From contig JBDRZD010000049.1 of assembly GCA_039803745.1 (NCBI GenBank), positions 1 to 11,870 on the forward strand: a stretch of 11,870 bases of DNA, read 5' to 3'. This DNA is from a candidate division WOR-3 bacterium (GTDB taxonomy: Bacteria; Hydrothermota; Hydrothermia; Hydrothermales; Hydrothermaceae). The position numbers were made by a program, and so were the translations under genes. Positions 5,749-11,870 of the stretch are shown here, piece by piece. The stretch's first letter is position 1. Every line of letters begins with the position of its first letter. The notes under the pieces are model-generated. The model had not been told where the DNA came from, searched no databases, and saw nothing but the letters and a program-made list of their open reading frames with translations.

Positions 5749-6012
5749 ATGCCAGTTTATGAATATGAATGTGAAAATTGTGGGAAAAGAATAGAGTTTT
5801 TTTTAATGGGTAGAGAAAAAGAGCCTGAGAAATGTGAAGACTGTGGAGGAAGTTTGAGAAGATTAATTTCAGGTGGAGTTGGGTTCATATTTAAGGGTTC
5901 TGGTTTTTATGCAACTGATTATAAGAAAAATAGCAATGAAAAGGAAAGTGGAGAAAGTTCAAAAAGTTCCTGCTCCTCCTGTTCAGGAGGGAATTGCTCA
6001 ACCTGTAAATGA
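5749..6012 (+). CDS. FmdB-family zinc-ribbon protein (CxxC-CxxC-SSSS type putative regulator)
   Basis: MPVYEYECENCG...CEDCGG...FIFKGSGFYATDY followed by a Ser-rich tail ending in CSSCSGGNCSTC; SD AGGAGG upstream. Confidence 0.9.
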   Translation: MPVYEYECENCGKRIEFFLMGREKEPEKCEDCGGSLRRLISGGVGFIFKGSGFYATDYKKNSNEKESGESSKSSCSSCSGGNCSTCK

Positions 6013-6938: not shown

Positions 6939-7508
6939 TTGAATTTCAAAAATTTTGTTTTTATATTCATTTTTTTATTTTCCTGCTCAAATTCTTCTCT
7001 TTATGTTGATAGAGTAATAGATGGTGATACATTTGTTCTTGAAAATGGGGAAAAAGTAAGGATTCTGGGTATTGATGCCCCTGAGAAAGGCGAGCCATTT
7101 TCAGATAGTGCAACAATTTTTATTGAAGAATTAATTTTAAACAAAAAAGTTAAACTTGAATATGATTTACAGAAATATGATAAATATGGAAGAGTTCTTG
7201 CCTATGTATTCTTTGATAAAAAATTTTTGAATGAAGAAATTTTAAAAAGAGGGTTTGCCTGGGTTTATATTATTCCTCCAAATTTTAAATACTTCCATAG
7301 ATTAAAAATTGCAGAAGAAAAGGCGAAGAAAGAAAAAAAAGGATTATGGGGTAAACCCTATTATGTGGCATCAAAAAAAGGTAAAAAATTTCATGCCTTC
7401 TGGTGCCCGTCATCTAAAAGGATTGCGGAAAAAAATAGAATAATTTTTAAGTCAAGAGAAGAGGCAATTAAAAGGGGATATAAACCTTCAGGAGATTGTA
7501 ATCCATAA
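6939..7508 (+). CDS. Thermonuclease (SNase-like) lipoprotein with a C-terminal Ada-type metal-binding-like domain
   Basis: Hydrophobic N-terminus with lipobox-like LFSC; SNase motifs RVIDGDT, VRILGIDAPE, DKYGRVLAYV, LNEEILKRGFA and KKGLW; tail YVAS..KKFH..WC..FKSREEAIKRGYKP..CNP. TTG start. Confidence 0.88.
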   Translation: MNFKNFVFIFIFLFSCSNSSLYVDRVIDGDTFVLENGEKVRILGIDAPEKGEPFSDSATIFIEELILNKKVKLEYDLQKYDKYGRVLAYVFFDKKFLNEEILKRGFAWVYIIPPNFKYFHRLKIAEEKAKKEKKGLWGKPYYVASKKGKKFHAFWCPSSKRIAEKNRIIFKSREEAIKRGYKPSGDCNP

Positions 7509-7535: not shown

Positions 7536-7859
7536 ATGAAATTTTTTAATTTTTTGATTTACTTTTTAACTTTATCCTTTTTCTTTTTTATTCTTATTTT
7601 TAAAAAAGAAGAGAAAAATAAAGGAGCGCCTTATGAAGGTGGCGCACCTTCAGATTATAATTTAAATATAAAAGTTGAAATAAAATTTCTCAAAATTGTT
7701 ATTTTATTTTTGATTTTAAATACATCTATAGTTTATCTTTTACCATGGGCTTATAAACTGGAAAAGATGGGATTTTTTGGTTTATTTTTTGGTCTTATAT
7801 TTTTATTCATTTTACTTTTTTCTTATTTTTACATTTTAAGAGAAAAAGGAATTGAATAA
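7536..7859 (+). CDS. nuoA: NADH-quinone oxidoreductase subunit A-like (NuoA), divergent
   Basis: Three hydrophobic segments, loop motif PYEGG (canonical PYECG/PYESG) and LFLI...YLLPWA; lies directly upstream of nuoB. Confidence 0.8.
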   Translation: MKFFNFLIYFLTLSFFFFILIFKKEEKNKGAPYEGGAPSDYNLNIKVEIKFLKIVILFLILNTSIVYLLPWAYKLEKMGFFGLFFGLIFLFILLFSYFYILREKGIE

Positions 7860-8283
7860 GAGTATATTTTGGAGTAAATTGGATAAATTTGTTTCATGGT
7901 CAAGGAGTCTTTCATTATCAGTGAATTTATTTCCTCAAGGATGCTGTGGAGTTCAAATTTTATCAATAATTTCTTCGGAATTTGATTTAAAAGTTTCTCC
8001 AAGAGGGGCGGATTTACTGATAGTTGCAGGACCAATTTCAAAGAAGATGGTTCCTTTTATAAAAAGAATATATGAGCAAATGCCTTATCCAAAATGGGTG
8101 ATAGGATTTGGAGCCTGTGCATTAACAGGTGGTCCTTTTTATAGAAGTTATTCTGTTTTAAAATGTTTAGATGAAATAATACCGGTTGATTTTTATGTTT
8201 CGGGTTGCCCTCCTTCTTTTGATTCCTTAATCAAGGCAATTAATATGATCCAGGAAAAAATAAGAAAGGAGAAAGGAATTTGA
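7852..8283 (+). CDS. nuoB: NADH-quinone oxidoreductase subunit B-like (NuoB, N2 cluster)
   Basis: Tandem Cys GCCG, SPRGADLLIVAG, YEQMPYPKWVIGFGACALTGG and VDFYVSGCPP. TTG start overlaps nuoA by 8 nt. Confidence 0.93.
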   Translation: MNKSIFWSKLDKFVSWSRSLSLSVNLFPQGCCGVQILSIISSEFDLKVSPRGADLLIVAGPISKKMVPFIKRIYEQMPYPKWVIGFGACALTGGPFYRSYSVLKCLDEIIPVDFYVSGCPPSFDSLIKAINMIQEKIRKEKGI

Positions 8284-8759
8284 TAGAGGAGATTAAAAGT
8301 ATTCTTAAAGAGAAATTTGGAGAAAATATAGAATTTGAAGAAAAAGGAAAAGAATTTATGATAATTGTGGATAAAGATTTTCTTTTTGAATGTTTAAAAC
8401 TTTTGAGGGAGCATCCCTTTTTATTTTTTGATTTTTTAACTGATATTACTGCAATAGATCATTATCCTCAGGATAAGAGGTTTGAAATTGTTTATCATCT
8501 GTATTCTTTCAAATTCTCAAGAAGAATAAGGGTGAAAAGCAAATTGGAAGAACCTGAAATTAAATCATGTGTATCAATATGGAAAAGTGCATCGTGGCCT
8601 GAAAGAGAAATTTATGAAATGTTTGGAATACATTTCTTTGACCATCCAAATTTAAAAAGCCTTCTTTTATGGGATAAATTTGAAGGTTTCCCTTTAAGAA
8701 AAGATTTTCAAATTGATTCTGAGATTCGGAGTCCTGATTTTAAAGATTTAGAGGAATGA
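8280..8759 (+). CDS. nuoC: NADH-quinone oxidoreductase subunit C (NuoC)
   Basis: Motifs FDFLTDITAIDH, RFEIVYHLYS, WPEREIYEMFGIHF.DHPNL and EGFPLRKDF. TTGA start/stop overlap with nuoB. Confidence 0.93.
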   Translation: MIEEIKSILKEKFGENIEFEEKGKEFMIIVDKDFLFECLKLLREHPFLFFDFLTDITAIDHYPQDKRFEIVYHLYSFKFSRRIRVKSKLEEPEIKSCVSIWKSASWPEREIYEMFGIHFFDHPNLKSLLLWDKFEGFPLRKDFQIDSEIRSPDFKDLEE

Positions 8760-9874
8760 TGGAATTAAATATAGGACCACACCATCCATCAACTTGTGGA
8801 TTCAGAATAAAACTTTTTGTGGAAGGTGAAAAGATAATTAAGGCAGAATTAATGATAGGTTATATTCATAAAGGGATTGAAAAAATTTTTGAAAATCTTA
8901 ATTATATTCAAGGAATGATTCTTTCTCATAAAATTGATAATATTTCTCCATTTTCTGGCAGTTTCTCTTATGTTCTTGCAGTTGAAAAACTCCTTGATAT
9001 ACAAATTCCATTAAGAGCCCAGTATATAAGGGTAATAATTTCAGAGTTTTCAAGGATAAGTTCTCATTTATTCTGGCTTGGAACATTTTTAAATAATCTT
9101 GGCTTTTATCTTCCCTCTATTTTTGCATTAAGGGAGAGAGAAAGATTAAATAACTTAATTGAAGAGGTAATACCAAAAGGAACTTTATATTTAAGAATAG
9201 GTGGTGTTGCAAGAGATTTACCTTCGGGATGGATGGAAAGAACTTTGGATTTTCTTGAAGATTTTGAAAAAAAAGTTTATCAAATTGAGAAAACTGTTTA
9301 TGACAATGAATTTTTTATTTTAAGAACAAAAGATATAGGGATCATAAATATTGACTTGGCATTAGAACTTTCATTAACAGGACCTGTATTAAGGGGATGC
9401 GGGGTTGCATGGGATATAAGAAAAGTTTTTCCTTATTCATCTTATGATAATTTTGATTTTAAAATTCCTGTAGGTGAAAAGGGAGACTGTTATGATAGAT
9501 TTTTTGTAAGGATGGAAGAAATAAAGGAATCAATAAAAATTATAAGACAGGCAATCAAAAATTTACCCGAAGGAGAGATAATTGCTAAAGATCTTGATAT
9601 TATTCCTCCTAAAACAATTCCCCATTTTAAAGTTATTGCAGAAGGAATAAATATAAAAGAAGGGGAGGTGTATTCAAGTATTGAGAGTCCAAGGGGTGAA
9701 TTTGGATTTTATATAGTTTCAAAAAATTCTACAAAACCACACAGAGTAAGAATTAGAAGCCCTTCTTTTTATAACCTTCAGGTTCTTGAATACATATTAC
9801 CAGGAAATTCAATATCAGATTCAATTATAATCATAGGAAGCCTTGATGTTTCTCCTTTTGAAGTTGATAGATGA
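8756..9874 (+). CDS. nuoD: NADH-quinone oxidoreductase subunit D-like (NuoD, 49-kDa family), divergent quinone site
   Basis: Motifs LNIGPHHPST, GYIHKGIEK, LAVEKLL, EFSRISSHL, RIGGVARDLP, TGPVLRGCGVAWDIRK..PY, GDCYDR, ESPRGE, RSPSF and C-terminal EVDR. No CxxC Ni-binding motifs. Confidence 0.93.
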   Translation: MMELNIGPHHPSTCGFRIKLFVEGEKIIKAELMIGYIHKGIEKIFENLNYIQGMILSHKIDNISPFSGSFSYVLAVEKLLDIQIPLRAQYIRVIISEFSRISSHLFWLGTFLNNLGFYLPSIFALRERERLNNLIEEVIPKGTLYLRIGGVARDLPSGWMERTLDFLEDFEKKVYQIEKTVYDNEFFILRTKDIGIINIDLALELSLTGPVLRGCGVAWDIRKVFPYSSYDNFDFKIPVGEKGDCYDRFFVRMEEIKESIKIIRQAIKNLPEGEIIAKDLDIIPPKTIPHFKVIAEGINIKEGEVYSSIESPRGEFGFYIVSKNSTKPHRVRIRSPSFYNLQVLEYILPGNSISDSIIIIGSLDVSPFEVDR

Positions 9875-11870
9875 TGGGCAAGATTAAAATAAATGGAAAG
9901 GAATTTAAATTCAATGAAGGTGAGACAATATATACTGTTGCAAAAAGAAATAATATATTTATTCCTGTCTTATGTTATCATTCCCAGTTGAGAATAACTG
10001 GTTCTTGCGGAATATGTGTTGTTGAAGTTAAGATAAATGGAAAATCCGAACTTTTAAATTCCTGTTCCGAATTTGCAAAAGAAGGGATGGAAGTTTTCAC
10101 AGATTCTGAAAGGGTTTTAAAGAAAAGAAAAGATATTATAAAATCTTTAATTTTAAATCATCCAGTGTATTGCTCCCTCTGTGATAAAAATGGTATTTGT
10201 TTGCTTCAGGATTATACATTGCTTTATGGAGAAAAATTGGAAGAATATAAATATGAAAGAGAAATAAAAGAGTATAAAATAGAACCATTTATAAAATTCT
10301 ATCCTGATCTATGTATATTCTGTGAAAGATGTAATAGATTCTGGAATGAAGAGCTAAATGAAGGTGAAATTATTTTAATTGATAAAGAAAAAAAAGAGGT
10401 AAGATTATTAAAAGATAAAGATATTTTAAAGGGTTTTTTGAATTATCTTATAGATATATGTCCAACAGGTGCATTTTCAGAAAATATATCCCAAATTTAT
10501 GCAAAACCATGGGATTTAGAAAGAATTGATACCTATTGTACTTTTTGCTCCCTTTTCTGTGAAATAAGACTTTACATCAAGAAAAAAACAAAAACAAGGA
10601 CATATGAAGGAGGAAGAAAATTTTTACCTGATAGAATTTTTGATATAAAATATCAAAATAAGGGATTAATTGACAGTGTAATATGTGATAATGCAAAATT
10701 TGGGAGGGATTTTATTTCAAATGATAAAATATTAAAGAGGGCAAAAATAGAAGGAAAGTGGAAAGAGATAGATATGGATGAAATAGTTTTAAATTTAAAA
10801 AATAAATTAAAAAAATATATAAGTGAAGAAACAGGAATCATTTTGTCCCTTAATATGGGTAATGAGGAGATTGACTCTTTAAAAGATTTTTTTGTAAATG
10901 AAAAAAGAATAAAAAATTTTTTGATTGTTCCAGGTTTTTTTGATACTTCTTTTAATTTAATGAAAACTAATTTCAAAATAGAAGATATAGAGGATAATAC
11001 ATTTATTTTACATACAGGTTATGATTTCTTTAATTCCCATCCTGTAATCGGATTTGAAATTTTAAGAAGATTGAGAAAATTTAAAAAAGTGAATTTATTT
11101 TCGCTCTCTTATGAAAAGGGGAAGATTCAAAGAGAAGCAAATGATTTCTTATTAATAGATAATAATACATTTAAGATTTTAAAGGTTTTATTTAAAAAAT
11201 TGTATAAAGAGTTTGGGGTTAAAAAGGAGATTGAGGAGGAATTTTTGAATTCCTTTCTTTTTTTAAGAAAAATAGAAAACCTAAATGAGGATAATATTTT
11301 AAAAGAGTTGAATTTTGAAAAGGGAAGATTTTCTAAAATTGTTAAAAGTATCATAAATTCAAAAAAATTGGTTGTTATCTATCAAGATTTTATACCCTTT
11401 GAAATCCAGAAATTATGTTATTCCTTTAAATATATAAAATTTCCAGTGAAAATTTTAATATTGAGAATGTGGCAGAATACAGAATATTTTTTAAATAAAA
11501 AATTTCCAATAATAGATATTTATGAATTCAAAAGAAAAGTTGAAAATGGTATGATAAAATTTGTGATGATTTTTAATGTTAATCCATTTTTATTTATAAA
11601 GGATGAAGAATTTTTAAAAAATATTTTTGAAAAATGCGAAATATTTGTTTTTGATTCATTTAATGGGACGCATGCAGATTTATCAAATAATGTGGTTCCC
11701 CTAAAAACATTTTATGAAAAAGAAGTAAAAGTTATGGATAATTTTTGCAATATAAAGGAAATTAAAAAGGTTTTTGAAAGTGAAAGAATTTATTTACCGG
11801 AAATAATTTCCAGATTAAAAGGAAAGGAAAGTGAAGAGATAAATTTTGAAGAAAAGATTGAAATAGATTT
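9871..11870 (+). CDS. nuoG: NuoG-like Fe-S subunit (75-kDa family), 3'-truncated by the window end; absent from the ORF track
   Basis: Manual translation from ATG 9871 (ATGA overlap with nuoD) is open for 666 codons to the window end: MMGKIKINGKE..IPVLCYHSQLRITGSCGICVVE..NSC (2Fe-2S, N1b), NHPVYCSLCDKNGICLLQD (N5), CIFCERC..DICPTGAF (N4), KPWDL..TYCTFCSLFC..ICDNAKFG (N7), then a weakly recognisable molybdopterin-oxidoreductase-like region. Confidence 0.88.
   Translation, partial: MMGKIKINGKEFKFNEGETIYTVAKRNNIFIPVLCYHSQLRITGSCGICVVEVKINGKSELLNSCSEFAKEGMEVFTDSERVLKKRKDIIKSLILNHPVYCSLCDKNGICLLQDYTLLYGEKLEEYKYEREIKEYKIEPFIKFYPDLCIFCERCNRFWNEELNEGEIILIDKEKKEVRLLKDKDILKGFLNYLIDICPTGAFSENISQIYAKPWDLERIDTYCTFCSLFCEIRLYIKKKTKTRTYEGGRKFLPDRIFDIKYQNKGLIDSVICDNAKFGRDFISNDKILKRAKIEGKWKEIDMDEIVLNLKNKLKKYISEETGIILSLNMGNEEIDSLKDFFVNEKRIKNFLIVPGFFDTSFNLMKTNFKIEDIEDNTFILHTGYDFFNSHPVIGFEILRRLRKFKKVNLFSLSYEKGKIQREANDFLLIDNNTFKILKVLFKKLYKEFGVKKEIEEEFLNSFLFLRKIENLNEDNILKELNFEKGRFSKIVKSIINSKKLVVIYQDFIPFEIQKLCYSFKYIKFPVKILILRMWQNTEYFLNKKFPIIDIYEFKRKVENGMIKFVMIFNVNPFLFIKDEEFLKNIFEKCEIFVFDSFNGTHADLSNNVVPLKTFYEKEVKVMDNFCNIKEIKKVFESERIYLPEIISRLKGKESEEINFEEKIEID

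Follow-up and report, generated by a model that had tools for sequence, protein, structure and literature searches.

The window analysed here, a stretch of 11,870 nucleotides that makes up the entire contig JBDRZD010000049.1 (C49 below) in assembly GCA_039803745.1 of an uncultured candidate division WOR-3 bacterium from a hot spring, ends in an operon, nuoA-B-C-D-G, that belongs to a second set of complex I genes (set 2). Judged from its genes, this second complex I probably no longer performs the normal job of complex I. In the sublineage that unites this genome with its sister species, set 2 was stripped: nuoE and nuoF were deleted, in the sister species together with nuoG; the quinone triad of NuoD replaced, the cavity loop of NuoB deleted and the loop between transmembrane helices 1 and 2 (TMH1-2) of NuoH rewritten; carboxylates and lysines of NuoA, NuoH, NuoK and NuoM replaced; and, in the genome carrying the window, nuoL2 is missing. 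The set-2 genes themselves stay intact under purifying selection, with all iron-sulfur (Fe-S) ligands retained. On balance we favor the view that set 2 encodes a complex I derivative that has degenerated yet is maintained, its remaining function being uncoupled.

The genome carrying the window (G000) comprises 1.67 Mb in 100 contigs, has a G+C content of ~29% and is 93.5% complete. It was compared with G001, from the same genus; G003, the sister species in that genus, 67% complete; G004, from a related genus of the same family; and G002, a further relative that is 75% complete. Passages of PMC12542636 describe nuo genes as widespread in WOR-3.

Gene content and key residues of set 2

All five nuo genes of the window were assigned to their families with Pfam and NCBIfam profiles (Table 1). 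They overlap by 8, 4, 4 and 4 nt at the A-B, B-C, C-D and D-G junctions, respectively, and contain no internal stops. G001, which has the same KdsA-nuclease flank, and G004, which has the same operon, both read nuoA-B-C-D, then two open reading frames (ORFs) of 137–154 and 392–414 aa, then nuoG; by position, size and recognized N-terminal motifs, rather than by a family scan, these two ORFs are putatively NuoE and NuoF. The D-G junction of the window would then mark a clean deletion of nuoE and nuoF. No match to PF01257 (NuoE) or PF01512 (NuoF) was found anywhere in the 93.5%-complete G000, and E. coli NuoE and NuoF used as tblastn queries returned no match in this genome. An assembly artefact at the D-G junction was ruled out by independent contigs from the runs of two different studies that bridge it, X11 record 11 (8468–9936) and X9 record 26 (8424–10371), which differ from the window by 1 and 2 letters. 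Other contig joints, mostly ~20-letter matches in low-complexity DNA, were disregarded.

Table 1. Coordinates of window features and ratios of nonsynonymous to synonymous substitution rates (dN/dS, G000–G003) of set-2 genes
Feature	Position	Strand	Description	dN/dS
nuoA2	7536-7859	+	107 aa; Pfam PF00507	0.245
nuoB2	7852-8283	+	143 aa, TTG start; PF01058, TIGR01957	0.187
nuoC2	8280-8759	+	159 aa; PF00329, TIGR01961	0.132
nuoD2	8756-9874	+	372 aa; PF00346	0.329
D-G junction	9871-9874	+	ATGA overlap; site of the putative nuoE and nuoF in G001 and G004	
nuoG2	9871-11868	+	at least 666 aa, open at contig end (orthologues 702-737 aa); PF13510, PF10588, PF22117, PF00384, TIGR01973	
nuoH2			lone gene on another contig	0.120
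nuoM2			on another contig	0.243
nuoN2			on another contig	0.231
Zinc-ribbon protein	5749-6012	+	87 aa; PF09723; between GroEL and KdsA	
Staphylococcal-nuclease-like protein	6939-7508	+	directly upstream of nuoA2	

Substitutions were checked by residue-level alignment to solved structures, namely Thermus thermophilus Nqo4 and Nqo6 and E. coli NuoA. Compared with Nqo4 (PDB 2fug_4), NuoD2 has replaced all three residues of the H/Y/D triad, with C14 for H38 (8795–8797), N62 for Y87 (8939–8941) and N114 for D139 (9095–9097), and it carries deletions of 1, 2 and 10 residues relative to canonical NuoD of the same family. In NuoB2 the Glu that follows the CC pair of Nqo6 is Q35 (7954–7956), and eight residues of the quinone-cavity loop D-L-A-R-F-G-S-E-V-F are deleted between L46 and K47 (7987–7992). 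NuoA2 has N62 (7719–7721) and S64 (7725–7727) in place of D79 and E81 of E. coli NuoA. The ligands of the N2-type cluster are retained in NuoB2 (C31, C32, C89 and C119), as are those of NuoG2 (C35/46/49/65, H97/C101/104/110, C148/151/154/197 and C223/226/230/272), whose positions match the Cys columns in NuoG from E. coli and the relatives. We take these retained NuoB and NuoG motifs to be those of clusters N1b, N5, N4, N7 and N2.

The H/Y/D triad was found in 116 of the 120 best NuoD homologues, the four exceptions belonging to the same small clade as the window NuoD, and in 52 of 54 further NuoD sequences from genome contigs, which rules out chance background variation as an account of its loss. 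Two NuoD homologues on Actinomycetota and Acidimicrobiaceae genome contigs (L073 and L078) have His/Trp/Glu instead of His/Tyr/Asp.

The remainder of set 2 is dispersed in G000, with a lone nuoH on contig C50, nuoI-J-K on C16 and nuoM-N on C60, bringing the homologues present to A, B, C, D, G, H, I, J, K, M and N. These unlinked proteins were aligned to the E. coli K-12 proteins from NC_000913. The TMH1-2 loop (E. coli 43–53) of NuoH2 is rewritten in both G000 and G003, and the protein has Q at the E157 position and V or S at E216. NuoK2 has M in place of E36 and its C-terminus is absent. NuoM2 has G or A at the E144 position, N or Y at K234 and T at E407, and the L-P-D-A-H motif is absent; K265 is retained. 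NuoN2 retains all four key residues (E133, K217, K247 and K395), and NuoI2, which is ~50 residues shorter than its orthologues, retains both four-Cys motifs. At these positions the set-2 proteins of G001 and G004 are all canonical; the one exception is NuoK E72, which their set 2 lacks as well. Altogether, 12 of the 17 quinone or coupling residues checked are replaced in set 2, versus none of the 28 Fe-S ligands of NuoG, NuoI and NuoB (Fisher p = 2e-7), a contrast that is descriptive, its residue list having been picked from the literature.

The 93.5%-complete G000 yielded no second nuoL, and the G001 nuoL2 matches only the set-1 nuoL there, at 40% identity. Synteny does not place the nuoL2 deletion, since the genes downstream of G000 nuoK2 lack orthologues next to nuoL2 in both G001 and G004.

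A preliminary description, made from the letters of the window, had reported an uninterrupted nuoA-B-C-D-G series with every gene overlapping the next, changed quinone and coupling residues in NuoD, NuoB and NuoA, retained Fe-S ligands and no adjacent NADH module. The ORF coordinates and profile matches, the structure alignments, the NuoB and NuoG alignments and, for the NADH module, the D-G overlap together with the genome-wide searches bear this out.

Descent of set 2 and selection on its genes

The first set of complex I genes (set 1) lies on contig C9 of G000 in the order nuoA-B-C-D-H-I-J-K-L and has canonical NuoD, NuoB and NuoA residues. An antiporter-like gene pair on C84, with orthologues in G001, G003 and G004, is taken to be nuoM and nuoN of this set, which is of the 11-subunit type without NuoEFG. 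Outside the window, the nuo genes of G000 are spread over at least five loci (C9, C50, C16, C60 and C84; L008–L012), with the lone nuoH standing between PBP1-type and ligase-domain genes. This scattered layout recalls that of Aquifex aeolicus.

The set-2 NuoD, NuoB and NuoA of G001 and G004 are canonical at the queried residues; NuoA, for example, reads FDVE in these genomes versus N-T-S/G in G000 and G003. The sister species G003 shares the derived state, with Q/N/N in NuoD, the same substitution and deletion in NuoB as in G000, and N and G in NuoA. Its operon consists of nuoA-B-C-D only, followed by an unrelated 265-aa ORF and then by the conserved ORF that in G001 follows nuoG, and no nuoG was found elsewhere in this 67%-complete genome. 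A protein search returned three more intact NuoD sequences of the derived type (94, 83 and 81% identity), for a total of five distinct ones. Among these, the Y87 position is Asn in 5/5, the H38 position Gln in four and Cys in one, and the D139 position Asn in three and Ser in two. In a maximum-likelihood NuoD tree the five-member derived clade has 100% support and a stem of 0.50 substitutions/site, and is nested in the canonical clade of the family (100%).

The operons of the relatives and the NuoD tree settle the direction of change: a canonical 14-subunit enzyme came first, and the state seen in the window is secondarily derived from it. The comparisons show that the ancestor of the genus had two nuo sets, set 2 being a split 14-subunit set with nuoABCDEFG at one locus and nuoH, nuoIJKL and nuoMN elsewhere, and the loss is recent, having occurred within one genus. 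In G002, 75% complete, D, G, H, J and M of set 2 were not found; the flanking nuclease gene was not found there either, so that incompleteness may be the cause. A second NuoG-like protein is encoded in G004 (G004:C10:24157-25488; 33% identity over the first 427 residues, in a 929-aa open frame) and may belong to a formate dehydrogenase or hydrogenase.

Synonymous divergence (dS) between G000 and G003 is 0.47–0.78 and unsaturated, and the per-gene dN/dS of set 2 is 0.12–0.33 (Table 1); NuoC2 is 82% identical to its G003 orthologue. For the concatenated set 2 the ratio is 0.217 (bootstrap confidence interval 0.187–0.252), compared with 0.086 (0.072–0.103) for set 1 and 0.09–0.11 for two flanking genes. 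The set-2 value of 0.22 indicates purifying selection, at a constraint ~2.5 times weaker than that on set 1. No stop or frameshift occurs in ~2000 set-2 codons in either of the two species, which are ~0.6 dS apart, and when the seven genes were simulated under neutrality, with substitutions only, no run out of 300 kept the frames stop-free, even at 0.03 substitutions/site. Given the dN/dS values and this simulation, the set-2 genes are not pseudogenes. On a fixed tree, the stem of the derived pair measures 0.208 substitutions/site at codon positions 1+2, versus 0.029 for set 1. There was no sign of positive selection on this stem, the ratio of branch lengths at codon positions 1+2 to position 3, taken from branch lengths and not from a codon model, being 0.26.

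Relation to known complexes and possible functions

Set 2 most closely resembles canonical 14-subunit complex I. NuoD2 matches Nqo4 with E = 5e-89 and NuoB2 matches Nqo6 with E = 1.5e-35, the Fe-S ligand motifs agree, and the operon occupies the same chromosomal locus as that of the canonical enzyme of G001, with NuoD2 nested in the family's canonical clade. It differs in that no NuoE, NuoF or NuoL2 was found, and in the replacement of the quinone triad, the NuoB and NuoH loops and the charges of NuoA, NuoK and NuoM. Of the defining features of a 14-subunit complex I, set 2 therefore has the Fe-S ligands and lacks the full subunit set, the NADH/flavin mononucleotide site, the quinone site and the coupling charges. 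It is also distinct from the 11-subunit enzymes (NDH-1/Fpo/Nuo11) in having NuoG and an Asn as the Tyr87 equivalent, and by descent it is a reduced 14-subunit set.

NuoD proteins that lack H38, Y87 and D139 are known from Sulfolobus, Nautiliales and Desulfurobacteriales, with a presumed non-quinone function, and passages of the source read them as ancestral, deep-branching and pre-quinone forms in which Thermus positions 86 and 403 still hold vestigial NiFe Cys (Degli Esposti 2015, PMC4758237). The window NuoD has in common with them the absence of the hydrogen-bonding triad. It differs from the Nautiliales/Desulfurobacteriales type and from MBX/MBS in having Asp61 at position 86, a C-terminal motif D-V-S-P-F-E-V-D-R without Cys, and a recent loss. 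Unlike the triad-less NuoD described there, it has no vestigial cysteines and arose recently from a canonical enzyme. MBH and MBS (PDB 6cfw and 6u8y), whose acceptor is not a quinone, are distant NuoD homologues (E = 6e-47 and 6e-60, respectively), but the window NuoD lacks NiFe-type Cys, and where it has its lone pocket Cys, C14, the four other members of the clade have Gln. The N- and C-terminal Cys pairs of group 4 [NiFe] hydrogenases (Ech, Mbh and Hyc) are likewise absent from NuoD2, which scores 18.2 bits against PF00374 (cut-off 25.8). The NuoD alignments and this score agree with the preliminary description, which had noted that the diagnostic Cys motifs of relatives using H+ or sulfane sulfur are missing.

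Complex I of the Campylobacterota type keeps NuoG without NuoE/F, carries a pair of substitute genes in the interval from nuoD to nuoG, and retains a working quinone site. Set 2 is alike in having NuoG without NADH-binding subunits, but in the window D and G overlap directly and the quinone site is gone. Ehr, treated by Marreiros et al. in 2013, is reportedly a separate complex I-like clade without NiFe and quinone residues; the placement of the window NuoD in our tree argues against shared descent with any old separate clade of this kind. In the literature searched, mostly outside subscription journals, we found no description of secondary loss of the quinone site in a Nuo14 derivative.

Markers of quinone biosynthesis were also surveyed. 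PF02621 (MqnA/D family) has no match in G000, in the four genomes of family f1 or in the six order-level genomes of f2; MenB was above cut-off in one of 31 genomes; and E. coli MenC, MenD, MenF and MenH gave no match as tblastn queries. G000 encodes a MenA-like prenyltransferase (C53, 458 aa, with a 165-residue N-terminal extension) that scores 100.6 bits against TIGR00751, just under the cut-off of 102.15. Genomes with a canonical set 2 also lack these menaquinone markers. Because the markers are absent with the derived and with the canonical operon alike, they do not discriminate between the readings considered below. The family and order relatives, which encode a complex I with a canonical quinone site yet lack the markers of both known menaquinone pathways, may use a scavenged quinone precursor or an unknown pathway.

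A degenerate but maintained derivative of the kind we favor would not oxidize NADH, because NuoE and NuoF are absent, nor would it bind quinone in the canonical manner or couple redox chemistry to proton pumping via the E-channel, NuoM or NuoL. With the quinone-holding elements, the E-channel/NuoM relay and NuoL gone, it could hardly act as an NADH:quinone proton pump. Its proteins would most likely still assemble as a membrane-anchored Fe-S complex, and its residual role, probably an uncoupled one, would be, for example, to pass electrons from a ferredoxin-type donor through the NuoI/NuoB clusters to a non-quinone acceptor. NuoG would be an optional extra here and is not essential, since G003 lacks nuoG. 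The presence of intact, constrained genes in at least two species and of five protein lineages argues for some remaining role, and the full retention of the Fe-S ligands, read from the alignments, would point to electron transfer or to a fold that requires the clusters.

Several observations weigh against this view. Clade members differ from one another at the former catalytic positions (C/Q, N/S, G/A, N/Y and V/S) and no new conserved Cys or His ligand was found in the clade, a combination that looks like lost constraint rather than a new site. Lineage-specific losses, of nuoG in G003 and of nuoL2 in G000, where NuoK2 and NuoI2 are also shortened, together with the 2.5-fold higher dN/dS, fit continuing erosion, and the Fe-S ligands may be kept only as fold support. 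The derived state of NuoB2, NuoH2, NuoM2 and NuoN2 comes from two genomes and that of NuoI2, NuoK2 and NuoG2 from one, and the assembly and activity of the complex are predicted from its genes.

Such erosion could also be read as that of a relic heading for loss, which has no function and on which selection only averts the cost of misfolded or half-assembled membrane protein, or whose function was lost very recently. The different genes missing from the two species, the truncated NuoK2 and NuoI2, the variable ex-catalytic residues, a dN/dS 2.5 times that of set 1 and the set-2 genes not found in G002 are all in keeping with a relic. We nevertheless consider this unlikely. The confidence interval of dN/dS lies far under 1, ~2000 codons are open in two species ~0.6 dS apart, none of the 300 simulated runs stayed open at only 0.03 substitutions/site, five NuoD lineages are intact, and the gene junctions are tidy 4-nt overlaps, the new D-G junction included; the G002 absences, moreover, may reflect incompleteness, as the missing flanking gene suggests.

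Two further readings fare less well. It is quite improbable that quinone or another membrane carrier is still reduced at a remodeled pocket, even though the N2-type cluster is retained, the Y87 position is invariably Asn in the clade, a MenA-like prenyltransferase is encoded close to the TIGR00751 cut-off and, according to passages of PMC4758237, Y87 mutants stay active with short-chain quinones. The triad, the NuoB loop and the NuoH TMH1-2 loop have all changed together, two of the three triad positions are variable, the E-channel, on which any use of the redox energy would depend, is dismantled too, and set 1 already offers a canonical quinone site. We see equally little prospect for an adaptively re-tooled enzyme that still converts energy with a new non-quinone acceptor. 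The burst on the stem, followed by slower change, would suit it, as would the intact Fe-S chain and NuoN channel residues and the conserved N62; against it, the coupling residues of NuoA, NuoH, NuoK and NuoM are replaced and nuoL2 is missing, which makes a pumping route hard to see, no new conserved ligand has appeared, the stem ratio of 0.26 gives no excess of amino-acid change, and NuoG is dispensable in G003.

A more far-reaching reading, which we put forward only tentatively, is that within one genus a canonical complex I shrank to an Fe-S "wire" that neither pumps nor uses quinone, made up of NuoA, B, C, D, H, (I, J, K), M and N plus an optional NuoG, and that it is selected for a new redox or sensing role. 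The preliminary description had placed its emphasis on an undescribed non-quinone electron-transfer complex, which corresponds to the re-tooled enzyme considered above; that claim is neither demonstrated nor refuted by our data, which include no new conserved ligand. Its other reading, a paralogous complex I that is losing the quinone site while selection holds the Fe-S chain, gains support from the canonical set 1, the canonical G001 orthologue, the 12/17 versus 0/28 contrast and the dN/dS of 0.22. Two checks proposed there, a search for a second nuo set and an estimate of dN/dS among relatives, led to set 1 on C9 and to the purifying value of 0.217, with no pseudogenization in G000 or G003.

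If the "wire" were real, nature would have pared complex I down to a minimum and given it a new acceptor. The genus offers a natural series, from the 14-subunit canonical form (G001) through one without E/F (G000) to one without E/F/G (G003), that reveals what can be taken out of complex I while selection still maintains the remainder, and in which the fate of the Fe-S chain is separate from that of the quinone and pumping machinery. An active complex would give the complex I scaffold a role beyond NADH:quinone energy conversion. Annotation pipelines would list the window genes as "NADH-quinone oxidoreductase subunits A, B, C, D, G", and reconstructions from hot-spring genomes would then overstate respiratory capacity.

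Neighboring genes and minor observations

The long ORFs of the window are on the + strand throughout. From 5' to 3' they encode an aminotransferase, an aspartokinase, a TrkH-like transporter, GroES, GroEL, the zinc-ribbon protein, KdsA and the staphylococcal-nuclease-like protein, followed by nuoA-B-C-D-G. The C-terminal tail of the zinc-ribbon protein is rich in Ser and Cys. The nuclease-like protein has a signal-like N-terminus and, at its C-terminus, a weak match to an Ada-type zinc-binding domain that falls below cut-off; its gene keeps its place upstream of nuoA in G001 and G003. Three short contigs of G000 (C69, C87 and C98) have a G+C content of 58–68%, versus ~29% for the genome, and are likely bin contamination. 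On C50, a LuxC-like acyl-CoA reductase and a LuxE-like acyl-protein synthetase are encoded two genes downstream of the lone nuoH2 (L011, 437–2681).

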